64,000 nucleotides of DNA from assembly GCA_964399075.1 (NCBI GenBank), contig CAYNPK010000002.1, positions 20,418 to 84,417 of the forward strand. The letters are read 5' to 3'. This document shows, one piece after another, positions 1-20,681 of this stretch. The stretch's first letter is position 1; each line of letters starts with the position of its first letter. The notes below the pieces were generated by a model. It was not told the DNA's origin. It searched no databases and saw nothing but the letters and a program-made list of their open reading frames with translations. The translations under genes were made by a program, and so were the position numbers. Origin of the DNA: an uncultured Candidatus Saccharibacteria bacterium (GTDB lineage: Bacteria; Patescibacteriota; Minisyncoccia; Phycocordibacterales; JACOZG01).

Positions 1-1233
1 CAGCTTGACCGCCAGACCCTTGCCCTCGGCTTGCGGTTTCCATTTCTCAAATTCCAGCTTGACCAATTCTTGCAGATTAAAATCTTTTTTATTGTAAATC
101 ATCGTGCCCTTGCGGAGGTCGGAAGCCTTCAAGATATCCTGGACCGTTGCCACCGCGCGAGTGTCAGAAGCGAAGCCCTCCTCAATGAGAGGCCTGGCGG
201 TCGCGGGCATCTCGCCGTAACTGCCATCGCGGAGCATGTCGAAGATGTTACGCGACTTGGTGAAGAAGCCCTTAACCTGGTGGGTGATGAAGTGGATTAA
301 TTCCGTCTGATTCTTATTCGCCACTTCCAACTCCTTGGCCAGTTTCTCGATTTTGATTTTGGATTCCAGTTCTCGTTTGGAGTTTTGCAGTAAGAGCAGG
401 CCGAAGACGATAGTGATTGTTAAGGTGATGACGTTGAGGGCCATATCAGCGGTGCTTTGCAGGAAGAGGAATTGCGAAGCGACCATGATAATGAGAACGT
501 ACACCAAGAGTTGAGTCCCAAGGAAGCGGATGTTGAAGACTTGGAGATTAGTAATCGCGTATACCATGGCGATTAAGAAGAGTGGCAAAACAAAGAGGCC
601 GTATAGGTTGACCTCGTAGATAAAGGTGGTTGCGGCAATGTATTCAGTAATGCTAAAGGTTGAAAGAAAGAGGATTAAAGATAGAAAAATGACTCCTGAT
701 TGTATTTTTTTAGTCCTATTAGATTTTTTCCACGCGATAATTAGAGATAGGAAAATTAAGGCGGTTGATACCCATTCAACAAAAACTTTATAGAGCACTG
801 CCTTGTCGTTGTTAAGAGCTTCACACCACGTTTGATCAAAGTTGGTAATTGCGTTGCCAGTTAATGTGAAAATGAATGCCGGTACACACAAAGCAAGCAG
901 GGTTATTTTTTCCGCCTTTGTAATTTCTCCCCTCGTTAGAGTTCCAAAGAAATAGACTGCTAAAACAAAAAATATTACATTAATATAATCAATCCATGAC
1001 CAGAAGAACACGACGTAAAAGTAATTTGGCACTGTCCAAATAATAACGTCATTTAAAAGCCATAATGAAACAGCTGAGACAAAGAACAGAAAGATGATCG
1101 CTATTGTTGCAAATTTAGTTTTTATAAGAGCATAAATTGCTAGAAAAAAGGCGATCGCTACAGGAATAAGATGAGAATAATACGCAATTGTGTGATAATA
1201 GCTAGTTGTTTCAAAACAAGTATTTATATCCAT
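1..1233 (-). CDS. membrane sensor histidine kinase-like protein, N-terminal part (gene runs off window start)
   Basis: Minus-strand ORF from ATG at 1233 (MDINTCFETTSYYHTIAYYSHLIPVAIAFF...) stays open to position 1. About 8 hydrophobic helices are followed by an H-box-like segment (ELIHFITHQVKGFF...DLRKGTMIYNKKDFNLQELV). It is absent from the ORF track because no stop falls inside the window. Confidence 0.45.
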   Translation of the reverse strand, partial: MDINTCFETTSYYHTIAYYSHLIPVAIAFFLAIYALIKTKFATIAIIFLFFVSAVSLWLLNDVIIWTVPNYFYVVFFWSWIDYINVIFFVLAVYFFGTLTRGEITKAEKITLLALCVPAFIFTLTGNAITNFDQTWCEALNNDKAVLYKVFVEWVSTALIFLSLIIAWKKSNRTKKIQSGVIFLSLILFLSTFSITEYIAATTFIYEVNLYGLFVLPLFLIAMVYAITNLQVFNIRFLGTQLLVYVLIIMVASQFLFLQSTADMALNVITLTITIVFGLLLLQNSKRELESKIKIEKLAKELEVANKNQTELIHFITHQVKGFFTKSRNIFDMLRDGSYGEMPATARPLIEEGFASDTRAVATVQDILKASDLRKGTMIYNKKDFNLQELVKLEFEKWKPQAEGKGLAVKL

Positions 1234-1275
1234 ATAAGTTATTGTACCACTATTTCATAAAAAATATACGCAAGA

Positions 1276-1848
1276 TTATTCCGCTTTTATTCCCTCAAGG
1301 CCCTCTAGAAGTAACAATTCGTATTTTGGCATTTCGTAATGGCCTGTTTCTTCGATCTTTTTTAATAATAATTTCATGTAACTTTGCATGGCGTTCGCTT
1401 TTTTATAGTAATTGAGTTGTTTTTTGGGAATACTTAAAACATCGCCCAGAACCCCTCGACAGTTCTCTGATCCGCATACGCATTTCATGTTCCATTTGGT
1501 TGGAGCAATGGTTAGAGAGTAGTCATAGGTGATTTCTTCTCCTTTGTTGATATCTCTAATTGCAAAGAGTTCACTTGCTTTTCTTAAAGATGAATTTGGA
1601 TTACAGCTGTGATTAAATGTTCGAGACAAACTATCCAAATCTAAATAGGTTCTTTTGCCAATCTGGAGAGGGTCATCAATGTATTCTTTGCCAGATTTAA
1701 TTTTTGCTACGAAATCTTTCGCGGTAAATCTCTCGCCACTAAGCAAATATATTACCTCACCCCTTTTTATAAATCTCCCAGCAAAAACTCCCTTACCATA
1801 CTTCTTGGTATTCTTAACAATTAATTTTTTGTCTGAAAATAAGGTCAT
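1276..1848 (-). CDS. SET-domain protein (putative protein-lysine methyltransferase) with post-SET Cys cluster
   Basis: NHSCNPNS motif, EITYDY, and C-x-C-x4-C post-SET (KCVCGSENC). True start is ATG at 1848 (MTLFSDKKLIVKNT), chosen by comparison with the paralog at 12205..12779. The upstream part of track ORF 1276..2133 is an over-extension. Confidence 0.7.
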   Translation of the reverse strand: MTLFSDKKLIVKNTKKYGKGVFAGRFIKRGEVIYLLSGERFTAKDFVAKIKSGKEYIDDPLQIGKRTYLDLDSLSRTFNHSCNPNSSLRKASELFAIRDINKGEEITYDYSLTIAPTKWNMKCVCGSENCRGVLGDVLSIPKKQLNYYKKANAMQSYMKLLLKKIEETGHYEMPKYELLLLEGLEGIKAE

Positions 1849-1986
1849 GGTGGGGGTTATTGAATTATATAATAATTGGGTGGTTGGGAAAAGCCAGTAT
1901 CGTGTGCTAGCTTGCCTTATTCTGTTATTTAGATTAGTATATGAATGGAGTTTGAGGTCTTTTGTTCGCGAAGGGAGGTGATATAC

Positions 1987-2130
1987 ATGAGTGAGTCGGA
2001 GATCCTTATTGTTCCCGATTCGAAGACGCACGCGAAGGTCGTCGAAAACATCGACTTGAAGGATGCCGTCGATGCACGACCATGCGATTGCGCCGCCTGC
2101 AGCTCCTGCAGGTGTACGCCGTGCAAGTAG
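1987..2130 (+). CDS. 47-aa Cys-rich peptide, candidate RiPP precursor (SCIFF/ranthipeptide-like: six Cys in C-terminal 14 residues)
   Basis: Internal ATG of track ORF 1945..2130, preceded by SD GGGAGGTG 6 nt upstream. Sequence MSESEILIVPDSKTHAKVVENIDLKDAVDARPCDCAACSSCRCTPCK. GC-rich relative to flanks. Sits immediately upstream of an HExxH gene and a radical SAM/SPASM gene. Confidence 0.5.
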   Translation: MSESEILIVPDSKTHAKVVENIDLKDAVDARPCDCAACSSCRCTPCK

Positions 2131-2216
2131 CATGGCTACACCAAAGAAAAGACCCGAGCATGTCTATAAACTGCTCTTTTTTATTTCTATTTTATTTAAA
2201 TTCAAGATTATTATCC

Positions 2217-2945
2217 ATGAACAAACTTCGTTTTTGCTTAAACAAAAAGCTTGATGAGTGCTTGGCCGGAGAATTTCTTAATGTGTCTGGAGGGGGGATA
2301 GATTTCGGCAAGGGGATTATTAAAATACATCCGCAACTGAAACCAGTTAAATCTCTACAAGATGCTATTCAGAAAGAAAAAGCTATTAGGATTTATTTTA
2401 ATCACTACTATCAAATTCATCGAGAAGAGATGGTTCGTAAGTTAAAGCTTGTGCGAAACTCTTGGAGTAAGAAAGAGCAGAAATATGTTGCGATAACTGA
2501 AGATTTTTTCGGCGGTTTTCGATTTTCAAAAGGAAAATATATTGCCTATGCCTCTATTATTGACTGCAATCCTCGGTTTTTAGACTCAAAAACATTTCAG
2601 TTTTTTTATAAAAAATCACTCGCTGACGCTATTCAGACTATTGCCCACGAACTTCTTCATTTTATTTTCTTTGATTTTGTTGAAAAGAGATTAAAAAAGG
2701 AAACGAAACATTTATCAGAGAATCAATTGTGGGACCTGTCAGAAATATTTAATGTGATCGTGCTTAAATCTCTGTCATACAAAAATATTATTAATCAACA
2801 ATTAGTAACTCCTTATCCTGATCACCAGCCTTATCTTCCTCAATTTGAAAAAGCGTATAAAAATTCTAAAAACGCCGAAGAATTTATTAGACGGGGTATA
2901 AGTATTATAAACACAAAAAATAGCGAGACGAGGCTGATAAACTAA
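2217..2945 (+). CDS. HExxH metallopeptidase-like protein, family A (ImmA/IrrE-like motif IAHELLHFIFFDF)
   Basis: Clear paralog of 5388..6038 (CNPRFLDSKTFQFFYKKS / IAHELLHF / LWDLSEIFNVI). Likely start is ATG 2217 (MNKLRF), not 2082. Confidence 0.6.
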   Translation: MNKLRFCLNKKLDECLAGEFLNVSGGGIDFGKGIIKIHPQLKPVKSLQDAIQKEKAIRIYFNHYYQIHREEMVRKLKLVRNSWSKKEQKYVAITEDFFGGFRFSKGKYIAYASIIDCNPRFLDSKTFQFFYKKSLADAIQTIAHELLHFIFFDFVEKRLKKETKHLSENQLWDLSEIFNVIVLKSLSYKNIINQQLVTPYPDHQPYLPQFEKAYKNSKNAEEFIRRGISIINTKNSETRLIN

Positions 2946-2969
2946 AAGAGGATTGTAATGGTATTTGAT

Positions 2970-2997
2970 TTGACAGGTGGGGTAAATTATTTATACT
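2970..2997 (+). promoter_or_regulatory. sigma70-like promoter TTGACA-16-TATACT upstream of rSAM gene
   Basis: TTGACA at 2970..2975 and TATACT at 2992..2997. Followed by SD GGGGTGA 5 nt before ATG 3061. Confidence 0.35.
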
Positions 2998-3060
2998 GTT
3001 TTTAGACTGCCGAAACTACGTTGTTTTGGCTTTGGTCTCTGACAACTAACGGGGTGACAT

Positions 3061-4122
3061 ATGGAAGATTCAATCAGTACGGCGATAGTGAAACCAACAG
3101 ATGGTTTTTGTAACTTGGCTTGTTCCTATTGCTACATGCAGAAGGTCTGTACTCGGGGAAAAATTCGGGTCATGAGTGCGCACGTTCTTGAAAACCTAAC
3201 TGATTTCTTCTGTTCCGAATTGGAAGAAATTGAGTTCATCTGGCATGGCGGTGAACCTCTTTTGGCCGGAGTGGATTTCTATCAAAAGGTAGTTCAGTGT
3301 CAGGAAAGCTGGATCGCCTCTGGTAAGAAAATCGCGAACTTCGTTCAAACCAATGGGGTTTTGTTAAATGGCAGGTGGGCGGATTTCTTTTCCCAGAACG
3401 GCTTTGTGGTTGGGGTGAGTCTCGATGGTCCGGCCCGCGTTCACGATGCGACCAGACGTTTCAAGAGTGGCGGTAGTTCCTTGGTGGCAACTATCAATGG
3501 AATAGAGGTGGCCCGAAAAGCGGGCATCTTTAATGGGGTGATTTGTTGCGTAAGTTCTCACAATTGCGAATTAGCGGAAGAGACCTTTGATTTTCTCTGT
3601 TCCCTGGGGATTAAGAGTATAAAATTTCTCAGGGTCAAGGGGGAATTTGAGGACAGCGTCAACCAAGGTCAATATGTTCGTTTTCTTACGGCCGTCTTAA
3701 GAAGGTGGCTGGAGGTCGATGATCCGGAGATTGAAATTAGAGACATCAAAAGTCTGATAGACATAGCCTTGGGGGGCAATTTCAGAGAATGTGTCTACAT
3801 GGGAAGGTGTGATAAATTCGTTACCGTTTACGGAGACGGATCTATTTACGCCTGTGATAATTTGCCCAAGGTTGATCGATTCTGCTTCGGCAATGTGGTC
3901 CAGACGAGAAAGGAGGTGTTGCTTGGACCAAAACTCCAAAACTTTCTTGCGATGATTGATGAACGTAAGAAGAGTTGCTCGTCTTGTTTTTGGTTTGAGA
4001 CCTGTCGCGGCGGTTGCGCCTATCGGTACCTACAAGAAGAAAAGGAGGAAAATCAATGTGAAGACTTGAAAGATTTGTTTGGCACTGTTCGTGATGTACT
4101 TAAAAGGCACCAGATGGTCTAG
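3061..4122 (+). CDS. radical SAM / SPASM-domain peptide maturase (rSAM no.1; AnSME/ranthipeptide-maturase-like)
   Basis: CNLACSYC (C-x3-C-x2-C) and GGEPLL. C-terminal auxiliary-cluster Cys motif CSSCFWFETCRGGCAYRY. Confidence 0.85.
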   Translation: MEDSISTAIVKPTDGFCNLACSYCYMQKVCTRGKIRVMSAHVLENLTDFFCSELEEIEFIWHGGEPLLAGVDFYQKVVQCQESWIASGKKIANFVQTNGVLLNGRWADFFSQNGFVVGVSLDGPARVHDATRRFKSGGSSLVATINGIEVARKAGIFNGVICCVSSHNCELAEETFDFLCSLGIKSIKFLRVKGEFEDSVNQGQYVRFLTAVLRRWLEVDDPEIEIRDIKSLIDIALGGNFRECVYMGRCDKFVTVYGDGSIYACDNLPKVDRFCFGNVVQTRKEVLLGPKLQNFLAMIDERKKSCSSCFWFETCRGGCAYRYLQEEKEENQCEDLKDLFGTVRDVLKRHQMV

Positions 4123-4157
4123 GTGCCAACTACTCTCTTTCGAGAAGGATTGGTGCT

Positions 4158-4298
4158 ATGAAAAAACGTGAATCTAAACTGAAAGTCCCCCGTGTCTTGC
4201 AGAAGGCTCGGCAAGTTGCCAAGTCTTTTGCGTCGAATTCGAGTTCGGGTTATACCAAGGGGCCTTGGGATCAGGGTCACTGGGCAAACCGAAAGTAA
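4158..4298 (+). CDS. 46-aa basic peptide (K/R-rich leader-like N-terminus, C-terminal GYTKGPWDQGHW); candidate rSAM substrate
   Basis: ATG 35 nt after the rSAM stop, with GAGAAGGA RBS 9 nt upstream. Sequence MKKRESKLKVPRVLQKARQVAKSFASNSSSGYTKGPWDQGHWANRK. An intrinsic terminator follows. Not in ORF track (<60 aa). Confidence 0.4.
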   Translation: MKKRESKLKVPRVLQKARQVAKSFASNSSSGYTKGPWDQGHWANRK

Positions 4299-4336
4299 GA
4301 GCGCGTATGATTATCGCGCAGGAAACTCAAACCAAA

Positions 4337-4370
4337 CGAGTAGTCTATCGGACTACTCGTTTTTATTTTT
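4337..4370 (+). terminator. rho-independent terminator (CGAGTAGTC-loop-GACTACTCG + T-run)
   Basis: Perfect 9-bp stem followed by TTTTTATTTTT. Closes the rSAM no.1 peptide operon and is convergent with the 4363..5247 gene. Confidence 0.5.
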
Positions 4371-5247
4371 GAATGTGTCCTTTTAGAACTTCGATTAGCG
4401 ATTCGAGGTAGGCATTATCAAGAGGAATTTTACCTTCCGTATACTTCTTAGACCAACCATACATGTGATAAGCACATATTTTTCTTGTTTGTGAAAAATC
4501 TAAAATGTTTTCAGTTTTTGCCAATCGTTCGTTTGTAATTTTTACCACCTCTATGCCAAGATATTTCTCTGCTAAATATCCTTCTGGTATAAATGAACTG
4601 ATTATTAGTTCTTCTAAAACAAGATAAGTGTTTTTTGTGCCATAGTTAACTAGATTAATTATCTCTGAATTTTTTTCTGTTACTTTTTTTATTTTTTCCC
4701 AAAGTTGATGATTTTTCTTCAATATCAAATGGAAAAATTCATGAGCCAATATCCCAATAGAAAATTTATCAGGAATAATGTTGTCAACTGGGCACTCCAA
4801 AACTATACTACTTCTATCCGGAGACCAAGAAAACCAAGCCGACAAATTATCATAAGGACTAATCACCAGATTAATTTGAATATCTTCGATCGAGAGATTA
4901 TCCATGCCCGCAAGCGAAAGAGCATCAGCAATCACCAGGTCCAATGTCTGTAAATTATCTTGATAGTATTTGGAAAGTAGTTCGAGTTTTTTTAGAGCAG
5001 TAAGCCAAAATTTATCAAACTCTTGCTCAAAAGGAGCGATGGCTTTTCTAAATTCGGATAACTTATCTTGCCCAACCATCTCTTCAAGGCTAGACCAAAA
5101 AGTCTCGTCATTTTCGGTAGCCAGAAAGAGTTCAATATTTTGAACATCCTCTGTTTTTAATAGATCTTTGATTGTTTGTTCCTTTTTAATATCAACCAAA
5201 AAGTGCAAAAAGTTGACATTTTTTGAAATACTAAAATTTAATGACAT
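4363..5247 (-). CDS. HExxH metallopeptidase-like protein, family B (ILAHEFFHLILKKNH)
   Basis: 294-aa ORF with a single HEXXH. The 5' UTR contains GGAGGA and derives from the N-terminal coding sequence of the 8545..9363-type gene. Confidence 0.55.
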   Translation of the reverse strand: MSLNFSISKNVNFLHFLVDIKKEQTIKDLLKTEDVQNIELFLATENDETFWSSLEEMVGQDKLSEFRKAIAPFEQEFDKFWLTALKKLELLSKYYQDNLQTLDLVIADALSLAGMDNLSIEDIQINLVISPYDNLSAWFSWSPDRSSIVLECPVDNIIPDKFSIGILAHEFFHLILKKNHQLWEKIKKVTEKNSEIINLVNYGTKNTYLVLEELIISSFIPEGYLAEKYLGIEVVKITNERLAKTENILDFSQTRKICAYHMYGWSKKYTEGKIPLDNAYLESLIEVLKGHIQK

Positions 5248-5266
5248 TTTTTATTCAGAATATCCT

Positions 5267-5340
5267 CCAGTCTGGGAACTGTCTTAGGATTTTACCATAG
5301 AATGGCTAAAATTAGAAGGGGTGGTTATTGAATTATATAA
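5267..5340 (-). promoter_or_regulatory. repeated promoter/5'-leader module (copy 2) with extended -10 TATGGTAAAAT
   Basis: Core ATGGCTAAAATTAGAAGGGGTGGTTATTGAATTATATAA at 5302..5340. On the minus strand it reads CCCCTTCTAATTTTAGCCATTCTATGGTAAAAT, then a 45-nt leader with GGAGGA before ATG 5247. Confidence 0.4.
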
Positions 5341-5387
5341 CACATGATAGTTTACACAACTTCTCACGCTTTTTTATTTTTGCCACA

Positions 5388-6038
5388 CTAGTTATTAATA
5401 TATCTAAGGTATTCCAAGCTTGTTTTTACAAAATTTACAACATTTGGTTCTTTTGTCCAAATCCTTTTTATTTCTTCCAACTTATTTTTCAGATCAGGGT
5501 AAAATAGAAGTTCTTCTGCTCCGATAGATTTTTTAATTGATGGAAGATTAAGAAAAATCACATTAAATATTTCGGATAATTCCCACAAATTATTGTCATT
5601 CTCAATTTTTAAATCACCACAAAAATCATAAAAGGCAAAGTGGGTCAGTTCGTGGGCGATAACTTCTTTTCTCATGTCATGCGAACGTTTGTAATAAACT
5701 TGGAAACTTTTATTCTCTAGATAGCGTGGATTGCAATTAAAGATAGACAAGTAACAAGTATAATTTTTTTTGCTGTAATCTTGGCCGAAATATTTCTGTA
5801 ATTCTAAAAATAAAGATTCTTTTATTTCTCTAAAACATAGCTCGGTATCCTCAAGAGTATTTTTCAAACTATCTTGATTCGCAGTATAAAAATTATCTAT
5901 ATATTCAATATAGTTTTCTTTAGTTATGTCCGGATGATCATCACGTATCTTCTTACCAAAATCAGCGCCACCAACAATAGCATCACAAAAAGCCAAATAT
6001 ACTTCTTTATCTAATTGTTTATTGAGCAGGGTGTTCAT
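5388..6038 (-). CDS. HExxH metallopeptidase-like protein, family A paralog (IAHELTHFAFYDF)
   Basis: Homologous to 2217..2945. Its 3' end (5388..5485) is duplicated at 12788..12950. Confidence 0.6.
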   Translation of the reverse strand: MNTLLNKQLDKEVYLAFCDAIVGGADFGKKIRDDHPDITKENYIEYIDNFYTANQDSLKNTLEDTELCFREIKESLFLELQKYFGQDYSKKNYTCYLSIFNCNPRYLENKSFQVYYKRSHDMRKEVIAHELTHFAFYDFCGDLKIENDNNLWELSEIFNVIFLNLPSIKKSIGAEELLFYPDLKNKLEEIKRIWTKEPNVVNFVKTSLEYLRYINN

Positions 6039-6792
6039 TGCTCAAGTATCTTTTCCATGCTTTTTCCGCTTCGGTCGGGCTTATGCCGTATATTTCTTGA
6101 AAAATATCACTATTCTCATTTTTTGTTTTGAATCTATTGGTATTCTGATAAAGAGTTTTAAATTTTTCTTTACCATATTGTTCAATCAAGAATTTTGTAA
6201 ACGACCCAACAAAACAGTAGTAATAAAGAGCGTGATCGTCATCCAGCTCTTTCCATTTTGCGTGATCCATCATTGAATCTACTGGGGGCAGGAGCCCTTT
6301 ATTTGAAGCCTCATAAGCGAGTTTGTCGTGGTCTTCTCCATGCCAGCCGTGGCCAACCATATATTCTGCCAATCCTTCTTGAAAAAAAGCAATTGAAAGT
6401 CCCCACGGTAAGGATAATAAATGTGTATCTTCATGTTCTCCAATTGGTTTAATGTCTTTTGTATACAAAACATGCACAATAAAATCTTTCCAAATGGCTT
6501 GAGCATACCAATCATCACCCATTAATTTTTTCTTTGTTTTCAGATCAGGATAAAAATAATAAGTGATTTTTCTTTCTGGAGATAGAATTTCTAAAAATTC
6601 AATGATTTTTTTGAAAGCTCTTCCCTGTGTTTCTGAAATTTTTGTAATTTCTTTTTCCGCGATTGTTTTAGGTAAATAGTAAAAAATATAGTGTTCAGTT
6701 TCATGTTTGAGCCAAGAGATGTCATTTTTGAAATCCTCTTTGTACGTTGGGAGATTTTGGGTAATTTCAGGTGTGCTCATAATATTAAACAT
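6019..6792 (-). CDS. HEDTH-motif metallopeptidase-like protein (family H)
   Basis: 257-aa ORF with GEHEDTHLLSL followed by EGLAEYMVGHGWHGEDHD. Overlaps 5388..6038 by 20 nt, so probably operonic. Confidence 0.5.
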   Translation of the reverse strand: MFNIMSTPEITQNLPTYKEDFKNDISWLKHETEHYIFYYLPKTIAEKEITKISETQGRAFKKIIEFLEILSPERKITYYFYPDLKTKKKLMGDDWYAQAIWKDFIVHVLYTKDIKPIGEHEDTHLLSLPWGLSIAFFQEGLAEYMVGHGWHGEDHDKLAYEASNKGLLPPVDSMMDHAKWKELDDDHALYYYCFVGSFTKFLIEQYGKEKFKTLYQNTNRFKTKNENSDIFQEIYGISPTEAEKAWKRYLSNEHPAQ

Positions 6793-6832: not shown

Positions 6833-8143
6833 TTAGGAGTTGTACTCAAGAAACAACAAACCTTCGTTTAGAGTGGCGATTAGCTTGCGTTGACAGAACC
6901 TCTTTTCGAATCCTTTCTCTCCGTTTTCCACGATCGAGTCATGAATGCACCCACCGCCACATATTGGCAAATAGGGACATTTCTCTTCTACACACTTGTC
7001 TGTTCGAGAAAAATTCTCAAAACGAACATCTTGTGTATATGAGGTGGGAAAATCGGAAACGTGACCGAAATCGAAAGCGGGCCGTCCAACCGTACAGAAG
7101 CATTTTTGAAGTGCTCCATTCGGCTGAAGTACTGCCGAATGCTTTGCGATTGCCACGCACCATGGCCCCACAAGAAACTCGTCAGGTACAGCAAACCCAC
7201 ATTCTTTAGCGACACGCCAAGCAGCTACAGCTTTTTCGGCGGTCATTACTTCGGCCAAGGCTTTCGTGGTAGTGCCAAGAGATGGAACAACAAGACCTAG
7301 ACTTAAATGAATCTTGTTACCATAGCCAAGCTTTGCCAAGAAGCGTATAAGATCTGGCAACGATTCAGCGGTTTCTGTATCGAGAGAGAGTCTCAAGTTG
7401 ATCTTTGGCACGTATCCACCATCGAGCAACATTCTCACATTCGTGATAATCCTATCGAAAGTGGGTTGTTTGTCGTGGCCAACTCTACGGGTGTCATGCA
7501 ATTCTCTCGGACCGTCCAGGGTAATTTGCACTCGCCGTAAATCGTATCGTTTGAGTGCGATTGCCGTATTAGCGTCGAGAAGCAAGCCGTTAGTAGTGAT
7601 CTCGGTCCAATATTCTATTCCTTTCTTTTCAGTAAGCAACTTGATTCTTGTTAGGGCTTCTTTCGCCAAGTGTTTCACCAGAAGAGGTTCTCCTCCAAAT
7701 AAAACGCACTTCAGGGAAGCAACCTCTGGATTGGCTTCAAGGTATTGGTCAAGCCAGTGAACAGACTGACAAAGAACCGCCTCCGTCATCAATCCCAGTC
7801 GTCTTACTCCACGCTCGAAGCAATAGTGACAGTTAAGTTGACACTTCATGGTTGGCAGGAGATGCAATGTGAAGAGTTTTGCCTGTTCATTCCTTGTGTG
7901 GCGAAAGAAGTTACGATACTCGCGGAACTCGTCTTTGTCTTCTGGAACAACAAATCCATTATTGCCAGAAAGAGTTTCGATGGAATCATGGCTAGGCAAT
8001 GTTTGATCATGAAGCCACTTATCCAAAGATTCAATTGTTTTGCCATCAAGCATCGCGACTGCCCCAGTGAGATAATTCTTCACCAGAACATTCCCATCGG
8101 CAAAAGGGTAACGAACCGTAAATGCACTCCATTTGTACCTCAT
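6833..8143 (-). CDS. radical SAM / SPASM-domain peptide maturase (rSAM no.2)
   Basis: CQLNCHYC, FGGEPLL, and C-terminal CVEEKCPYLPICGGGCIHDS. Start is probably ATG 8143 (MRYKWSAF); the track uses GTG 8206. Confidence 0.85.
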   Translation of the reverse strand: MRYKWSAFTVRYPFADGNVLVKNYLTGAVAMLDGKTIESLDKWLHDQTLPSHDSIETLSGNNGFVVPEDKDEFREYRNFFRHTRNEQAKLFTLHLLPTMKCQLNCHYCFERGVRRLGLMTEAVLCQSVHWLDQYLEANPEVASLKCVLFGGEPLLVKHLAKEALTRIKLLTEKKGIEYWTEITTNGLLLDANTAIALKRYDLRRVQITLDGPRELHDTRRVGHDKQPTFDRIITNVRMLLDGGYVPKINLRLSLDTETAESLPDLIRFLAKLGYGNKIHLSLGLVVPSLGTTTKALAEVMTAEKAVAAWRVAKECGFAVPDEFLVGPWCVAIAKHSAVLQPNGALQKCFCTVGRPAFDFGHVSDFPTSYTQDVRFENFSRTDKCVEEKCPYLPICGGGCIHDSIVENGEKGFEKRFCQRKLIATLNEGLLFLEYNS

Positions 8144-8215
8144 GGTAGGACACATCCTTTCTAAAAAAATGTCCCGCAAGCTACACGCCTGCAGGACATC
8201 ATGCACTGCGACTCA

Positions 8216-8356
8216 CTAGTAGCCACAAGTGTCTTTGCCCAACCTGACCGGAGTGCGAAGGTCTTGGTTACCTGCTTTGAGCAGGATAACACCAGAGCTT
8301 TTCACACTAGCCGATCTTACAGGCCGAGTTGCCGGTTTGTCGTTCTTGGTAACCAT
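8216..8356 (-). CDS. 46-aa basic peptide upstream of rSAM no.2; candidate precursor
   Basis: ATG at 8356 with AGGAGG 8 nt upstream. Sequence MVTKNDKPATRPVRSASVKSSGVILLKAGNQDLRTPVRLGKDTCGY. Stop lies about 10 nt before the rSAM ORF. Same length and character as 4158..4298. Confidence 0.4.
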   Translation of the reverse strand: MVTKNDKPATRPVRSASVKSSGVILLKAGNQDLRTPVRLGKDTCGY

Positions 8357-8544: not shown

Positions 8545-9363
8545 TCACCCCATCTTTTCTTCCAGCAGCTTCTTTGTTTCATTGGGGTGACACATCCAGA
8601 AGTCTTCTCCCTCTATGTCGGTTGGCTCGAAGGCGATGATAAGCGGTTTGTGACCCAGTGTTTTATAGGCCTCAATAAAAGCTGGAAGAAACACTTCTCT
8701 GGTGAAGGAGATTTCTTTGTGATCAAGCATAAAGTTTTCAAACAAGACGCCGTTTCTAATGAATAATGATAGGAAGGGAGTATAGTATTCATTGGCGGTC
8801 ACGCCATGATTTTTAAACCACTTAGACGCATCGTAAAAAGAATCTCTGCGAAGTAATTTGTAAGTTTTTCTAAAAAGTCCGTGATGGAATCCTACCAGAG
8901 ATTGGTTCCATAAAGTTTTAACTTTTGAAATCTTTTTTCCTACAAATTCATTAAATTCAATGGCGTTTATTCTTTCTATTTTCATCCCCCCCTTCTTCCC
9001 TCTGCCTTGGAAAAAACTCAACTTGCCCAGGGAGTGTTTCCAGTCGTTGTTAGAAGTAAATTTATCATGCCGATATTCCCAAAACAGGAGCTTAGTATCT
9101 TCCAACGCATCAGCAATGCTGACAAATCTTCGGATTTCGTAATTGGGAGTAATCACCTGACGGAAAATTACCGCCCGCGGGTCTTTCTTGAAGGGCTCGG
9201 GGATGTCGTTCTTGAGAATTTTCAGCACTTTTTTCTCAAGTTCTTTGTCTTTTCTCCGCTCTTTTAACTCCCCAAGAGCCACCGACAGGGGAGTATAAAT
9301 AGTTTCTTCAAACAACTTCCTATTCGAGATGATTTTCGGAATATCCTCCAGTCTGGGAACCAT
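8545..9363 (-). CDS. hypothetical protein, family C (no recognisable motif)
   Basis: 272-aa ORF. Its 3'-terminal sequence recurs as truncated remnants at 15030..15112 and 16628..16660. Confidence 0.5.
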   Translation of the reverse strand: MVPRLEDIPKIISNRKLFEETIYTPLSVALGELKERRKDKELEKKVLKILKNDIPEPFKKDPRAVIFRQVITPNYEIRRFVSIADALEDTKLLFWEYRHDKFTSNNDWKHSLGKLSFFQGRGKKGGMKIERINAIEFNEFVGKKISKVKTLWNQSLVGFHHGLFRKTYKLLRRDSFYDASKWFKNHGVTANEYYTPFLSLFIRNGVLFENFMLDHKEISFTREVFLPAFIEAYKTLGHKPLIIAFEPTDIEGEDFWMCHPNETKKLLEEKMG

Positions 9364-12204: not shown

Positions 12205-12779
12205 CTAGAAATTACTAGCTTTTTCGCCCAGCCTCTCTAAGGCTAAGACTTCATATCTCGGAATTTTGTAACCGCCTCTCTTTTTAATTTCTGCTAGTAA
12301 CAGCTTCATGTAATGCTGAATCGCTCCGAATTTTTCGTATTTTTTATCTGTTTCTGAGGAACACTAAGAATATCTCCCAGAACCTTTCGGCAGTTCTCTG
12401 ATCCACATTCACATTTCATTTTCCATTCTGTTGGAGCCATTGTCATGGAGTAGTCGTAGGTTATTTCTTCTCCCGTATCTATATCCCTAAGCGCAAAAAG
12501 TTCACTCTTTTTTCTTATACCTCCGCTCGGGTCACAGCTGTGATTAAAAGTGCGAGACAGTTCATCAAGATCAATATAGGTTTGTCTGCCAATCTGAAAT
12601 GGGTCATCGATATTTTCTTTGCCGGAAATGACACTGTCTACAAGATTTTTTAGAGTCAATTTTTTCCCATCAAGAACGTGGATAATTTCACCCTTCTTTA
12701 TGTCCTGACCAGCAAAAACTCCCTTACCATACTTGTCGGTATTCTTAACAATTAATTTTTTGTCTGAAAATGAAGTCAT
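12205..12779 (-). pseudogene. SET-domain protein paralog carrying a -1/+1 frameshift in an A6 run (pseudogene or sequencing error)
   Basis: Residues 1-157 (MTSFSDKKLIVKNTDKYGKGVFAG...NHSCDPSG...KCECGSENC) are in one frame to 12306. The C-terminal MKLLLAEIKKRGGYKIPRYEVLALERLGEKASNF continues in another frame to stop at 12205. The switch is at the homopolymer near 12343..12349. Confidence 0.5.
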
Positions 12780-12787
12780 GGTGGGGG

Positions 12788-12950
12788 GGTTATTGAATTA
12801 TATAACACATGATAGTTTACACAACTTCTCACGCTTTTTTATTTTTGCCACACTAGTTATTAATAGATCTAAGGTACTCCAAGCTTGTTTTTACAAAATT
12901 TACAACATTTGGTTCTTTTGTCCAAATCTTTTTTATTTCTTCCACAAACT
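12788..12950. repeat. near-identical copy (~165 nt) of 5321..5485: promoter-module core plus the 3' coding end of a family-A HExxH gene (gene remnant)
   Basis: ggttattgaattatataacacatgatagtttacacaacttctcacgc...ttggttcttttgtccaaatc is shared with few mismatches. No intact ORF here. Confidence 0.6.
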
Positions 12951-12995
12951 TTTTTAAATACGGGTTCATGTTTCTATTATATGATATGTGTAGCC

Positions 12996-13622
12996 CTAGC
13001 TATTTCTTATTATCTTTTCTAAGTTAGGGTAATGATCCTCAAATGCCTTTTTGATTTTCTCTGTCTCATCTATCCCAATAGGTATCTTTTGCCACCTATG
13101 AAGTTCTGGAAAAGCTTTATCAAACAATAATTCAACTAAAGTCTCCTTCTGCCATTGTCCTACTTTGTATTTATCTATCAAAGGTTGGATGTGGAGATGG
13201 ATAGTTTCGTGCAAGAGGGTGTTGATAATGCCCCCCGTGTTTTTCTTAGAAATATTTATGATTACTCCATTCGGCGGTGAATAACTGCCACCGATGCCAT
13301 ATTTTGTTAAAACTATTTCTATTTCAGGGATCGGTTCTAATTTCAATTCTTCAATTAGTTTTAATAATCTGCTTTTTTGAGATTCTATCCCTGCTCTTGC
13401 TTCTTGCTCTATGTTTAAAAAAGTTCCCGCCGAATATTCATTATCTATCCTTTTTTCTAAAGCCTCTTCGGTATCGTTTTCTAAATTTTCCATATCCATT
13501 CCTGTCGGGAAAGTTAGATTATCCAATTTGTAGCCATTAGCTTTAAACCAGTCCAACCTCTTGATTGTCTGGAGGATTCTCGTTTTCTCTAATTTTGGTG
13601 AATATTTAAAGCTGAAGTTCAT
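12996..13622 (-). CDS. HExxH metallopeptidase-like protein, family D (LLHETIHLHIQP)
   Basis: 208-aa ORF with a single HEXXH. Confidence 0.55.
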   Translation of the reverse strand: MNFSFKYSPKLEKTRILQTIKRLDWFKANGYKLDNLTFPTGMDMENLENDTEEALEKRIDNEYSAGTFLNIEQEARAGIESQKSRLLKLIEELKLEPIPEIEIVLTKYGIGGSYSPPNGVIINISKKNTGGIINTLLHETIHLHIQPLIDKYKVGQWQKETLVELLFDKAFPELHRWQKIPIGIDETEKIKKAFEDHYPNLEKIIRNS

Positions 13623-13654
13623 GGTTATGTATTAATAATAGACAAAAAAATGGC

Positions 13655-13690
13655 TCCGGACAAATAATGTTCGGAGCCATCAGGTTATTA
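13655..13690 (-). terminator. rho-independent terminator closing rSAM no.3 - peptide operon
   Basis: ATGGCTCCG-loop-CGGAGCCAT perfect 9-bp stem with TTTTTTT on the minus strand. Confidence 0.5.
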
Positions 13691-13700
13691 CCGCTGTGCC

Positions 13701-13859
13701 TCATAGGCAATCAGGGCAATCGCAATCGGGAGGATTGGGACAATCGTCCGGGTCCGGTTGGCAGTACCCATCGCTCGACAAAGACCGAGCGCGTAGGTTT
13801 TGCACGGGTAAATCTCTTGAGATACCCGGCGTCGTCATCATTTCCGCTAGTGCTTCCAT
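13701..13859 (-). CDS. 52-aa Asp/Pro/Cys-rich peptide, candidate ranthipeptide-like RiPP precursor
   Basis: ATG 13859 preceded by GGAGAAAGGAGAG, 27 nt after the rSAM no.3 stop. Sequence MEALAEMMTTPGISRDLPVQNLRARSLSSDGYCQPDPDDCPNPPDCDCPDCL. GC-rich. Below the ORF-track size cutoff. Confidence 0.5.
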   Translation of the reverse strand: MEALAEMMTTPGISRDLPVQNLRARSLSSDGYCQPDPDDCPNPPDCDCPDCL

Positions 13860-13886
13860 GATGCCAACTCTCCTTTCTCCTGGAAC

Positions 13887-14915
13887 TTACCGTCCAGGTA
13901 CTAGGGTTTGAGCGTCGAAGACTGTCCACATCAGAGGACATCCTCCTCCGCAGTAATCCTTATGCTCACAATCGATGCACCTGTTGGATGGGTATGAGTT
14001 GATCCGGTCGTGATTGGTCGACACCTCCTCACTGTTCAATAGCCTTAGGAGTGAGTTTGCGTCATGAAAATCTTGATCGATTTCTCCTGTTGGAAATTCT
14101 GACATTCCATTACACGCAAGGAGGTTGCCAGCTGGGTCGAATATTACTCCCGTTCTGTTTTGGAATTGACATCCCGTGCAGAGTTGTCGCCTCTCCATGA
14201 GTAGACTAATAAAATCCCTTGGCCACACACAAAGTGGTGTTTTGAGAGAGAGGACCATCCTCCCATCCATCAGTTCGTGAAGCTTCTGGTATTGCGACAC
14301 GATATCTGTGACCAAATCAGCTATTGGGATCATTCCAGTTGTGCTAGGCCCCCGTTTGCCGACTGAAGGAGTGCAAGGACTAATGCTCACGCTATTTGCT
14401 CCACACTCTCGCGCAAAGGTCACAAGTTGGAGAAGTTTACCTCGAACGAAAGAGTTGTAGACCAGGCTAGCCCCGCATCCAAATTCTGAGGCTAATCGAG
14501 ATAGTCCAAGTCTCAATTGTTGCCAGTTGGATATGTGTGCCAGACTTTTACCTGACTCCTCATCGAAAGCTTTGATGGAGGGACTTACCCGATCATTTGG
14601 TGATTTTAGATATCCTGACCAGAAAAGATCGTCAGAAAATCTCTCTCCGTTTGTGACGATTGTGGTCTTGATTCCACAAGCTCTTGACTCCCTGTTGAAT
14701 CTTAAAAGAGGTTCCCAGAGCGTGGGTTCCCCCCCGATCAGGTCAATCTGCTTTATCTCCAAGTCTTTAATTATTGACAGAAGCCTTAGAGATAGTGGTA
14801 GGCTCATTGTTTTGCCACCGTCAAAACCTTGGTTTCTTGCATAACACCATTTACAACGGAAGTTGCACGACAAGTTTGTTGTAATCCAGGCAACCTTTGG
14901 TTTGGCTGTAAGCAT
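13887..14915 (-). CDS. radical SAM / SPASM-domain peptide maturase (rSAM no.3)
   Basis: CNFRCKWC, IGGEPTL, and C-terminal CIDCEHKDYCGGGCPLMW. RBS GGGAGGA 8 nt before ATG 14915. Confidence 0.85.
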   Translation of the reverse strand: MLTAKPKVAWITTNLSCNFRCKWCYARNQGFDGGKTMSLPLSLRLLSIIKDLEIKQIDLIGGEPTLWEPLLRFNRESRACGIKTTIVTNGERFSDDLFWSGYLKSPNDRVSPSIKAFDEESGKSLAHISNWQQLRLGLSRLASEFGCGASLVYNSFVRGKLLQLVTFARECGANSVSISPCTPSVGKRGPSTTGMIPIADLVTDIVSQYQKLHELMDGRMVLSLKTPLCVWPRDFISLLMERRQLCTGCQFQNRTGVIFDPAGNLLACNGMSEFPTGEIDQDFHDANSLLRLLNSEEVSTNHDRINSYPSNRCIDCEHKDYCGGGCPLMWTVFDAQTLVPGR

Positions 14916-15029
14916 TTGAGTTTCCTCCCAATATCAAAGAACAAAATGAGATCGGGACCATCCTGAATCTCGTCTAAGATTAAGACTACGTCTGCTATTT
15001 TATTTTGTCAAGATTATGTATCCGTCTAC

Positions 15030-15112
15030 CCCATCTTTTCTTCCAACAGCTTCTTAGTTTCATTGGGATGGAACATCCAGAAGCCCTCTCCCTCTATGTC
15101 GGTTGGGTAGAA
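15030..15112. repeat. truncated remnant of the 3' end of a family-C gene (cf. 8548..8640)
   Basis: ccccatcttttcttccaacagcttcttagtttcattggg...ccagaagccctctccctctatgtcggttgg is about 90% identical to the 8545..9363 C-terminal coding sequence. Confidence 0.5.
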
Positions 15113-16888: not shown

Positions 16889-18199
16889 ATGAAATTATCG
16901 CGTTTTAATGTTTGGTCGCTTTGTGACCATGGTCTCATTATCTTTAACACTCTTACTTGCGCCTTGTCAGTTTTCGAAGGGGATTACATTGAAAAGGTGT
17001 TCCGGGCTCTCAAGAATGAGGACATTGACAGTATTCCAGGAGAATTTTTGCTGGCAATGTCTGAGGATGGTTATTTAGTTGAGGACGAACTCGATGAACT
17101 TGGATTTATCAGAGATGCTTGCTGTGAAAGACGGTCTAAAACGGACGAGTACTCCCTGTGTGTGATTCTTACAATGGATTGCAACTTGGATTGCGCCTAT
17201 TGCTTCCAGAAGCATTCCAAAGAAAATCTATCACAGGTTGAAGTTGCCAAGGTTTTGAACATGTTTCGAGGGATAGCAACCAAGGCAAAGAGGATTGAAG
17301 TTGACTGGTTTGGTGGCGAGCCACTTCGCTCGTTCAGTGTTCTGAAATCCATGAATGATCAGCTTATGGCTATTGCTCAAGCTTCGGGTGTAGATTATCA
17401 GCATTCAATTACTACTAATGGTTACTACCTAAGCCATAAAGTAATCACCTATCTAGCCAAAACTCCTCTCTCGATTCTCACGATCACTCTGGATGGTCCC
17501 GCAGAAACTCACGATCGTAGTCGGCCAACAAAAAGTGGTCAGCCAACATTCCTTAAGATTCTCGAGAATGTTCAGATGGCGATTAAGGCTGGTCTGAATA
17601 TTTCTATTCGGGTTAACATTACTACTCTGAATGTTGATCGGGTTCATGAGTTGTATGATGTCTTGGAGTCGCGTGGTCTCAAGAACAAAGTTGAGGTTAA
17701 TCTCCAGGCAGTGGTTTCTTCTGACGTTAGATCGTGTGAGGAATACTGTCTTTCTGGACACGACTTCGCTTGTCGATCAATGAGGATATACAAGTGGGCA
17801 GCACAAAAAGGATGGGTGGTTTTTCCTCCCACGGAAAAATTGAGGGCTTTGGGATTTTGTGTTGGAGAGTACCCGAATCGCTTCATCACTGATCTCCATG
17901 GGAACTTGTATCGATGTAGTCAAATGACGGACGACGAGATGGTCGGCGCCCTAGATGACGATGGCTCAATCATTCTTCGGGAGACGGAGAATGAACTTTG
18001 GATTAACAAAGATCCTCTCAAGTTTCCTGAATGTCAAGGATGCTCAATCTTACCCATTTGCATGGGCGGTTGTAATCTTAAGCGGCGCGCCGGCAAAAAG
18101 TCAGTAGACTACTGTCTCGACTGGAAACATGATTTACCCGGCTTGCTTGAGGTCTTAGTGCTGAATGAGAGAAATATCGCCCTCTCCCAGCTGGATTGA
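16889..18199 (+). CDS. radical SAM / SPASM-domain peptide maturase (rSAM no.4)
   Basis: CNLDCAYC, FGGEPL, and C-terminal CQGCSILPICMGGCNLKR. RBS AAGGAAGAAG before ATG. Confidence 0.85.
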   Translation: MKLSRFNVWSLCDHGLIIFNTLTCALSVFEGDYIEKVFRALKNEDIDSIPGEFLLAMSEDGYLVEDELDELGFIRDACCERRSKTDEYSLCVILTMDCNLDCAYCFQKHSKENLSQVEVAKVLNMFRGIATKAKRIEVDWFGGEPLRSFSVLKSMNDQLMAIAQASGVDYQHSITTNGYYLSHKVITYLAKTPLSILTITLDGPAETHDRSRPTKSGQPTFLKILENVQMAIKAGLNISIRVNITTLNVDRVHELYDVLESRGLKNKVEVNLQAVVSSDVRSCEEYCLSGHDFACRSMRIYKWAAQKGWVVFPPTEKLRALGFCVGEYPNRFITDLHGNLYRCSQMTDDEMVGALDDDGSIILRETENELWINKDPLKFPECQGCSILPICMGGCNLKRRAGKKSVDYCLDWKHDLPGLLEVLVLNERNIALSQLD

Positions 18200-18250
18200 A
18201 GAATGGTTGCTTTGTTGGTACTCTTAAGTGTTGGAAAGGAGGTGATGAAC

Positions 18251-18331
18251 ATGAAGCGCGTTAAAAAAGCACGGGCGACAAAAGTAGTTACGCCACGTGC
18301 GACGTTCTCATCCTGCTGCAGAAACAAGTGA
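18251..18331 (+). CDS. 26-aa basic peptide with C-terminal SSCC; candidate precursor
   Basis: GGAAAGGAGGTG 8 nt before ATG 18251. Sequence MKRVKKARATKVVTPRATFSSCCRNK. A strong terminator follows. Confidence 0.4.
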   Translation: MKRVKKARATKVVTPRATFSSCCRNK

Positions 18332-20076: not shown

Positions 20077-20681
20077 TAGGCGTTTAACATCGAGCTTAAT
20101 TTTTTTAAATGACCCGCTGAGCCATTAAATATCCAATCCGAATGTTTTGTGAGTCGATTGCATAGCTGATTAAATTTCTTAGCGTCTCCTATTAGCTTTA
20201 AATTATAATTTTTAATTACATCCAACAATTCAGCTTTATTTTTTTCTAAATTTTTTGCGTTAGACATTTTTTCTACCTCTACATAAGCGATTGACCCAGC
20301 TTTGACTAGTGTCAATGTGATATTATTTCCCAAATCAAAATTAAAATTTTCACGTTCGGTAACTTTTGAAGCAAGTCCAAGTAGCGAAAACGTTTTCGCT
20401 AGATCAACGAATCGCTCCTTTGTAATTTTTCGAGAATCTTCGACCCGATCGTGAGTGTGGAAATCTCCTCTTTTTATAACAATTTCGGCTTCATTGTTTG
20501 AGTTTATGCGAACTCTAATATCAACATTTACTTTGTTTATTTCTCCCAAAAACATAACCGACAATCTTTTTGTCTTGGATATTTGTTTATTTGTTTTATT
20601 TAAACCACTAAGTAGTTTTCTAAATTGAGTAGGAGTGACTTCTGCCCTCAATTCAAGTTCTATGTTGTTATTATTTGACAT
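20073..20681 (-). CDS. CYTH-domain protein (paralog)
   Basis: MSNNNNIELELRAEV start. Homologous to 9442..10056. Confidence 0.6.
   Translation of the reverse strand: MSNNNNIELELRAEVTPTQFRKLLSGLNKTNKQISKTKRLSVMFLGEINKVNVDIRVRINSNNEAEIVIKRGDFHTHDRVEDSRKITKERFVDLAKTFSLLGLASKVTERENFNFDLGNNITLTLVKAGSIAYVEVEKMSNAKNLEKNKAELLDVIKNYNLKLIGDAKKFNQLCNRLTKHSDWIFNGSAGHLKKLSSMLNAY

Follow-up and report, generated by a model that had tools for sequence, protein, structure and literature searches.

The stretch of DNA considered here is a 64-kb window (positions 20,418 to 84,417 of contig CAYNPK010000002.1, assembly GCA_964399075.1) from an uncultured Candidatus Saccharibacteria bacterium, and the genes in question lie near its start. 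For positions 1987-4298 of this window, in whose numbering all coordinates are given, a first-pass annotation had described a single cassette formed by a Cys-rich 47-residue peptide, a HExxH protein, a radical S-adenosylmethionine (rSAM)/SPASM enzyme and a 46-residue Lys/Trp peptide. The individual features were all found where they had been placed, with three small corrections, and both small open reading frames (ORFs) are retained at other loci as conserved peptides; the single cassette, however, was not borne out. It is probable that the stretch holds two neighbouring, independent modules for peptides made on the ribosome and modified after translation (RiPPs), a complete one, module B (2970-5247), and one that would be half of another system, module A (1973-2945). 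This division is drawn from comparative context, which separates the Cys-rich and the Trp-peptide systems. Module B comprises an rSAM/SPASM maturase (rSAM1, 3061-4122, + strand), a Trp-rich peptide (4158-4298, + strand) that is very likely the precursor of a cross-linked RiPP, and a convergent HEFFH protein (F, 4363-5247, - strand). By its sequence features it would represent a new, uncharacterised family of an already known kind of system, triceptide-like in the first place and dynobactin-like in the second.

The 46-residue peptide reads exactly as first described, including its lack of Cys, and consists of a leader, VPRVLQKAR, and a core, GYTKGPWDQGHWANRK, with three aromatic-X-X motifs, Y-T-K, W-D-Q and W-A-N. 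Its gene starts 35 nt 3' of the rSAM1 gene. The closest relatives of rSAM1, in L003 and L004 (77% and 71% identity; L numbers denote loci), are directly followed by a small ORF with the leader VP[R/H]VLQKAR and the C-terminus GPWDQGHWANR[K/R]. A scan of one genome per species yielded 80 loci with related, anSME-like rSAMs, of which the six with an rSAM 40-47% identical, all of them Patescibacteria metagenome-assembled genomes (MAGs), some labelled Saccharibacteria or Parcubacteria, each encode a downstream peptide ending GPWDKGHWANR(K/Q). With the window included, the Trp peptide lies directly 3' of the rSAM gene in 9 of 9 loci, over a range of rSAM identity of 40-100%. Of the 80 scanned loci, the motif W-x-x-G-H-W-x-x-R is found in 6/6 with an rSAM identity of 40% or more and in 0/74 with an identity of 34% or less, and the same distribution (6/6 against 0/74) was obtained for F by tblastn. 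In the eight related Patescibacteria loci, rSAM, Trp peptide and F recur as a trio without exception (8/8), the convergent HEFFH protein of about 290 residues following the Trp peptide each time. The conserved HExxH partner of rSAM1 is F, whose gene lies outside the cassette as it was first drawn, and not the upstream HExxH gene (family A), whose product flanks rSAM1 orthologues in only two of the eight loci, in one of them on the other strand.

A profile built from the nine peptides retrieved at least 171 distinct Trp-peptide sequences; these 171 matches are unnamed or annotated as "hypothetical", none carries a Pfam domain, and the organism names attached to them are nearly all Patescibacteria, Parcubacteria or Pacebacteria MAGs. 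Motif statistics were taken on the best 120. The family has a leader consensus, PKVLLQAKKEA, and a near-invariant C-terminus, GPWD(K/Q)GHWANRK; the leader motif P-x-V-L-x-x-A is present in 119 of the 120 sequences and G-[H/R]-W-x-x-R in 118, of which 113 terminate one residue past the Arg. Each of the core residues P, W, D, G, H, W, A, N and R is 96-100% conserved, and W-D-x-G-H-W-A-N-R is essentially invariant. N-terminal of this block the peptides carry zero to four additional (P/A)-W-(D/E)-K repeats, giving two to six Trp per peptide, and the residue at +2 of all 365 Trp in the 120 peptides is K in 201 cases, N in 129, Q in 14, D in 11, E in 6 and R in 4. When the last 11 codons were compared among nine loci, 171 synonymous and 33 non-synonymous pairwise changes were counted, and the excess of synonymous changes indicates that the ORF is protein-coding, translated and under strong purifying selection. 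The last 12 residues contain Cys in only 1/120 peptides and Ser in 6/120; because the near-invariant core has neither residue, thioether and formylglycine chemistry can be excluded. The core sequence was not found in the literature, and no literature was found on cyclophane or rSAM RiPPs in Parcubacteria or Patescibacteria (supplements and subscription-only papers were not covered), although published triceptide sequence-similarity networks may already include the rSAM1 clade as a node without a name.

It had been suggested at first that a K-G-P-W motif in this peptide resembles the Lys-Trp crosslink site, KGDGW, of streptide, in which case a link would be formed between K34 and W37 of K34-G-P-W37, the Lys preceding the Trp. 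In favour of this proposal, K-G-P-W is present in the window peptide and in 86/118 family members, and rSAM/SPASM enzymes are known, from streptide, to make C-C links between Lys and Trp. The resemblance fails on conservation: the position is K in 88/118 peptides and otherwise N, G, Q, S or P, so that the Lys is replaced in 25% of the members, and the two closest orthologues read S-G-P-W (L003) and A-G-P-W (L004). In peptides that keep the Lys, it closes the preceding W/Y-x-K motif as its third residue. On the side of the enzyme, rSAM1 is devoid of an N-terminal RiPP recognition element (RRE), the streptide-type enzyme SuiB is not among its PDB matches at E <= 1e-5, and the WgkB model falls outside its 25 best NCBIfam matches. 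We consider a streptide-type link very unlikely.

The precursor and its maturase appear to be expressed together. The rSAM gene had been credited with a promoter of its own, and the sigma-70-like TTGACA-16-TATACT was confirmed at 2970-2997 (+ strand), with 11/12 positions matching. Its location is conserved, the TTGACA box lying 89-95 nt before the rSAM start in 6/9 loci (the window, L003, L004 and L006-L008) and, in one more (L005), at -69, and on account of this positional conservation the rSAM-peptide pair is taken to be a transcription unit of its own. The terminator described for the end of the unit does exist, but it lies at 4334-4362, beyond the limit first assigned to the cassette, and its stem is not a perfect 9-bp one: it has 13 pairs, 12 of them Watson-Crick and one G-T, followed by TTATTTTT. 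Detected on both strands, it is a bidirectional intrinsic terminator placed where the precursor and HEFFH genes converge. At 3009-3030 (+ strand), in the rSAM 5' leader between promoter and start codon, there is another hairpin that looks like a terminator and has a T-run; it could be an attenuator or a chance occurrence.

The first-pass description of the module B enzyme as an rSAM/SPASM peptide maturase is supported. The protein (353 residues, matching Pfam Radical_SAM) has the motif C17-x3-C21-x2-C24 at its extreme N-terminus and a full SPASM signature (C250-x9-G-x4-C265; C306-x2-C309-x5-C315-x3-C319; C333), and these cysteines are invariant or nearly so in an alignment with 28 homologues. 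As the CxxxCxxC motif begins at residue 17, no room is left for an RRE-type leader-binding domain. About 120 relatives share at least 41% identity with rSAM1, and the named organisms among them are all Patescibacteria/Parcubacteria, with one exception, a Nanoarchaeota MAG. The best NCBIfam match of rSAM1 is anSME (TIGR03942), with 243 bits, two more anSME models scoring 169 and 159 bits, and in a PDB search anSME (4k36, 6e-44) precedes the triceptide synthase ChlB (9gm3, 1.7e-21), the only other match at E <= 1e-5 being 5wgg. Since both databases put anSME first, rSAM1 might be taken for a housekeeping anSME that happens to adjoin the gene of an unrelated small basic protein. Its score is below the cut-off of 349 bits, however, the Trp peptide is strictly co-inherited and offers none of the Cys/Ser residues on which anSME acts by oxidation, and rSAM1 has no sulfatase gene for a neighbour in the loci read; a housekeeping role is scarcely credible.

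Among the peptide-maturase models, DynA ranks first, with 208 bits (cut-off 450) and an end-to-end alignment. It is followed by DarW (153 bits), GrrM/OscB (153, cut-off 310), AmcB (149, cut-off 425), YhhB (137, cut-off 445), FxsB (128, cut-off 370) and XyeB (103, cut-off 450), and for these seven the E-values range from 1e-30 to 1e-61 and the alignments are full-length; DarE reaches 125 bits (cut-off 650). From DynA downward these are formers of aromatic cross-links, and the thioether-maturase models are lower (PapB 123 bits, SCIFF maturase 74 bits). The nearest peptide-modifying relatives of rSAM1 thus appear, on present sequence evidence, to be cyclophane formers (DynA, GrrM/OscB and ChlB).

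Triceptides have been defined as three-residue cyclophanes in which an aromatic ring is linked to a C-beta on aromatic-X-X motifs (PMC11499958; PMC12912966), and such motifs, by which triceptide precursors are recognised, are present in the window peptide and in the 120 family members. The mechanism that we consider best supported starts with the radical removal of a C-beta hydrogen from K, Q or N and continues with addition to the aromatic ring that lies two residues upstream, and a cyclophane is favoured because a core without Cys or Ser excludes thioether and formylglycine chemistry. The promoter would drive a bicistronic mRNA for the RRE-less rSAM/SPASM enzyme and the 46-residue precursor, the bidirectional terminator closing the unit, and the conserved leader VPRVLQKAR would be bound by rSAM1. 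Reductive cleavage of SAM would give a 5'-deoxyadenosyl radical that strips the residues in third place of the motifs, K34, Q39 and N44, of a C-beta hydrogen, and the substrate radical would then attack the aromatic ring two residues upstream, Y32, W37 and W42, respectively. The expected product carries two or three three-residue cyclophanes of the triceptide type, each ring lowering the mass by 2 Da, and the leader would then be removed, most likely by F acting as a Zn peptidase.

Several points weigh against this proposal. The cyclophane is predicted from motif and homology, rSAM1 is under the curated cut-off of every named NCBIfam family, and its single best model is anSME and not a cyclophane synthase. 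The precursor gene lies 3' of the maturase gene, and in most characterised triceptide clusters the precursor is upstream of the maturase. In addition, the invariant Gly-His between the Trp motifs is left unaccounted for by a simple triceptide model, and could point to a different or extra link, for instance the His N-C link of dynobactin. It may accordingly be asked whether the product is dynobactin- or darobactin-like, with a His N-C or ether link formed through the invariant G-H-W, instead of or besides the Trp-C-beta cyclophanes. The invariance of Gly40 and His41 and the rank of DynA, an enzyme of about 355 residues which like rSAM1 has no RRE, speak for such a product, and daropeptide maturases and the formers of three-residue cyclophanes have been reported to share a common origin (PMC12912966). 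Daropeptides, however, require an aromatic-X-aromatic motif (PMC12912966), which is absent from the core, and the DynA score amounts to less than half of the cut-off; a link of this kind is judged to be quite unlikely. The triceptide-type cyclophane is retained as the preferred assignment.

The partner F has 294 residues and 68 detectable homologues, none of which is named or has a Pfam domain. Its invariant residues include H169, E170 and H173 (HEFFH, 169-173), E212, E213, E222, Y224 and R255. An AlphaFold model built from 33 sequences (pLDDT 92, pTM 0.90) adopts a zincin-like fold, on which true zincins score as well as the alternatives or better, and Foldseek returned a weak match to a putative Zn peptidase. 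Searches with F against peptidase family models gave nothing above threshold, and its profile found nothing meaningful among PDB sequences. It has recently been shown that HExxH proteins of RiPP clusters can be alpha-ketoglutarate (aKG)/Fe oxygenases and not proteases (PMC12636437), so that F might be an enzyme similar to ChlH, PflC or BpmH, with hydroxylation or oxidative cleavage of the cross-linked peptide as its task. The 33 members, however, matched neither the aKG-HExxH model (IPR026337/TIGR04267) nor any other NCBIfam model at E <= 1, no related PDB sequence was found, and real zincins fit the fold as well or better. Patescibacteria mostly lack the tricarboxylic acid (TCA) cycle and live anaerobically, which is a further argument against an oxygenase. 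We regard this alternative as unlikely and, on balance, slightly favour a role of F as leader peptidase, because of the HExxH-plus-Glu/Tyr pattern and the anaerobic, TCA-poor physiology. F and the family-A proteins are treated as separate families, probably with a common fold, their profile-profile alignment having a probability of 15% and covering only the surroundings of the HExxH helix. In L041 (3956-6198) an rSAM 29% identical to rSAM1 is found with a convergent F homologue (hhalign 97.9%) but without a Trp peptide, a hydrophobic 48-residue ORF taking its place. At 1-1250 (- strand) a membrane histidine kinase gene runs off the start of the window, and in L003 and L004, the closest loci, F also has a histidine kinase as its immediate neighbour.

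Module A begins with the Cys-rich ORF (47 residues, ATG at 1987 to TAG at 2130, + strand), MSESEILIVPDSKTHAKVVENIDLKDAVDARPCDCAACSSCRCTPCK, the core of which is RPCDCAACSSCRCTPCK. The sequence said to lie 6 nt before its ATG was confirmed, as a Shine-Dalgarno GGGAGGTG at 1973-1980, and its six Cys are indeed close to the C-terminus, although they span the last 15 residues and not the last 14. The likeness to SCIFF was found to be compositional only, as the 47-mer matches no NCBIfam model, SCIFF included (E <= 0.01), nor any Pfam model. The ORF has no gene call in the public protein collection; on the opposite strand a 285-residue ORF (1276-2133, - strand) runs antisense over it and represents an over-extended SET-domain gene, whose product would have about 150-190 residues to judge from its paralogue and its L009 homologue, and this may explain why gene callers missed the 47-residue ORF. 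A phmmer search of 1.8 billion representative proteins recovered eight full homologues, with the core PCDC(T/S/A)AC(G/N/S)SCRCTPCK and a related leader, and one truncated copy. Across the 17-codon Cys core of seven loci, 172 synonymous and 66 non-synonymous pairwise changes were counted, and as synonymous changes dominate the core, the ORF is considered a protein-coding gene under purifying selection. The family-A HExxH gene that follows is present as reported, its true start being the ATG at 2217 (2217-2945, + strand; 242 residues, HELLH). Its product matches nothing in Pfam, NCBIfam or the PDB sequences, and no family-A protein matches the aKG-HExxH hydroxylase model at E <= 5; an AlphaFold model of family A, with the two window paralogues as its only alignment (pLDDT 61.6, sheet region below 50), was too poor for comparing folds and was not used.

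The relatives of these two genes belong with another enzyme. In 6/6 independent loci with visible neighbours, the Cys-rich peptide lies beside a FibroRumin-like rSAM/SPASM of about 450 residues, with a peptide-binding-type N-terminal domain of about 95 residues, and these rSAMs are 52-71% identical to one another. The rSAM follows the Cys-rich peptide in L086, L089, L090 and L093, with a convergent HExxH gene coming third in L090. In L087 and L094 the HExxH gene comes between the two, and the rSAM lies past it in convergent orientation. Family-A orthologues, 55-58% identical, adjoin the Cys-rich homologues in 3/6 loci (L087/88, L090/91/92 and L094). The best NCBIfam model for the L090 rSAM is FibroRumin (TIGR04136), on which it scores 282 bits where the cut-off is 400, the ScfB model giving 127 bits. 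Thioether links are presumably what this type of enzyme makes. The window encodes no orthologue of it, the best match there being rSAM2 (6833-8206), at 25% identity.

The reading that all four genes form one cassette, in which rSAM1 would mature the Cys-rich peptide through thioethers of the SCIFF or ranthipeptide type, with or without acting on the Trp peptide as well, and the upstream HExxH protein would act as leader peptidase, has to be weighed against these observations. The four genes are closely spaced on the same strand, rSAM1 does align to the PapB ranthipeptide and SCIFF maturase models, and, with no FibroRumin-like rSAM in the window, another enzyme must act if the Cys-rich peptide is matured. 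Even so, the Cys-rich ORF is kept in 0/8 orthologous rSAM1 loci, its constant companion elsewhere is an rSAM family with an N-terminal domain that rSAM1 does not have, the positionally conserved promoter stands between the two gene pairs, and rSAM1 scores much lower on the thioether-maturase models than on those for cyclophane formers and anSME. We give very little credence to a single cassette. With two modules preferred, module A is incomplete here because its cognate rSAM of about 450 residues is not in the window, and we infer that the Cys-rich peptide is served in trans or orphaned. Against this it has to be set that the missing rSAM could be encoded in the ~22 kb of the 86-kb contig that lie outside the window, or elsewhere in the genome. 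A remnant of the Cys-rich precursor is found in a related organism, in L096 (679-774) and L097 (97-192), where a 31-codon leader with about 80% DNA identity is preceded by the same ribosome-binding site (RBS), AGGAGGTG, at the same spacing in L096, while the core has been lost and a thymidylate kinase gene directly adjoins what is left; module A therefore seems to decay in this lineage.

rSAM2 (457 residues, - strand) was considered as an orthologue of the Cys-peptide maturase and rejected, given its 25% identity, its TIGR04463-like subfamily, with an N-terminal domain, and its own candidate precursor, a 46-residue ORF at 8216-8356 preceded by an AGGAGG RBS (MVTKNDKPATRPVRSASVKSSGVILLKAGNQDLRTPVRLGKDTCGY); as a surrogate maturase of the Cys-rich peptide it is still to be counted among the candidates. 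On its 3' side lie a MA-peptidase-like protein (6019-6792) and the second family-A HExxH protein (5388-6038), and the region 6833-8356 probably represents a further RiPP cassette. The third rSAM/SPASM gene of the window (13887-14915, - strand; region 12996-14915) is followed by a 52-residue Cys/Pro/Asp-rich ORF (13701-13859, ending ...CQPDPDDCPNPPDCDCPDCL) and an unclassified 208-residue protein, and a fourth (436 residues, Clo7bot/TIGR04463-like; region 16889-18331, + strand) has just 3' a small ORF at 18203-18331 that ends FSSCCRNK. Internal duplications occur at 1396-1848, 12306-12963 and 15029-15112; the SET-domain paralogues are 67% identical at the protein level, one duplicated fragment shares 83% identity with the C-terminus of the 5388-6038 HExxH protein, and another 89% with that of the protein at 8545-9363, which suggests rearrangement within a RiPP-rich region. 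Base composition over 1800-6700 is a mosaic, with precursor and rSAM genes at 43-50% GC and HExxH genes at about 30-36%. Three independent Logan assemblies, of SRR11845627-29 (L001, L002 and L095), all break at window position 1811, the longest ending at 5352, and these breaks suggest repeats or strain variation flanking both modules.

Patescibacteria, the candidate phyla radiation, are thought to be minimal in biosynthesis, and module B would be among their few conserved specialised products. The near-invariant PWD(K/Q)GHWANR(K/R), kept across very divergent, tiny-genome Patescibacteria, might mark a conserved functional molecule of the candidate-phyla lifestyle and not a variable antibiotic, an idea that we put forward as speculative and rather doubtful. 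If it were true, the molecule could be a cross-linked Trp/His factor with metal or redox activity, similar to a cofactor, or a host-interaction signal, and its makers would be an RRE-less rSAM and a zincin-fold enzyme family not classified before. Module B also offers a concrete target for heterologous expression, with three genes and at least 171 precursor variants, and the cyclophane RiPPs would gain a Trp-Asp-Lys/Trp-Ala-Asn family and a new enzyme clade, the F family being a new HExxH partner in which hydrolase and oxygenase roles can be compared. For annotation, the lesson is that proximity alone is no ground for grouping small ORFs with rSAM genes.

Compared with known systems, module B is most similar to the triceptides (XyeB, GrrM/OscB, FxsB, YhhB, ChlB, HtkB and MicB), with which it shares a short anSME-like rSAM/SPASM maturase and a repeated aromatic-X-X core whose third residue has a C-beta methylene (W-D-K, W-E-K, W-D-Q, W-A-N and Y-T-K), often with a Pro before the first motif; ChlB is also the closest peptide-modifying enzyme with a solved structure. 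It differs from them in that rSAM1 reaches no curated family cut-off, the precursor is 3' of the enzyme, the constant partner is a new zincin-fold family, and the 10-residue core is almost invariant in more than 118 variants, nearly all the named organisms being Patescibacteria. With dynobactin and darobactin it has in common a top maturase model, DynA, of the same length as rSAM1 and likewise without RRE. Both compounds contain Trp-to-Lys/Asn C-beta C-C links, and Trp, His and Arg are found in the decapeptide core of dynobactin as well. In contrast to the daropeptides, no two aromatic residues of the conserved core P-W-D-K-G-H-W-A-N-R-K are separated by a single position, as the ether motif demands, rSAM1 falls short of the DynA (208/450) and DarE (125/650) models, and no DarBCD-type transporter lies beside module B in the loci read.

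By sequence and by structure, rSAM1 is closest to anSME (4K36), which has the same domain layout and SPASM cysteines, whereas rSAM1 is under the cut-off and has a peptide partner without Cys/Ser and no sulfatase context. Streptide (StrA/StrB/SuiB, KGDGW) is likewise an rSAM/SPASM RiPP with a Lys/Trp core, but the Lys position of module B, three before W37, is not conserved, rSAM1 has no RRE and SuiB was unmatched. Like the precursors of SCIFF and FibroRumin, of about 45-65 residues, the 47-mer has six C-terminal Cys and is found elsewhere beside an rSAM/SPASM of about 450 residues with an N-terminal domain; unlike them it matches no curated precursor model, its rSAM scores 282 against a cut-off of 400 and is missing from the window, and module A includes a third gene, for the unclassified HExxH protein. 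The defining features of these systems were looked for and not found, so that module B appears to be neither a streptide, a daropeptide nor an anSME system, and the 47-mer would not be a SCIFF. Finally, F resembles the aKG HExxH beta-hydroxylases (ChlH, BpmH and PflC; IPR026337), which are HExxH proteins of zincin-like fold encoded beside rSAM cyclophane synthases, but neither F nor the family-A proteins match the family model, and the fold score is no better than that of real peptidases.

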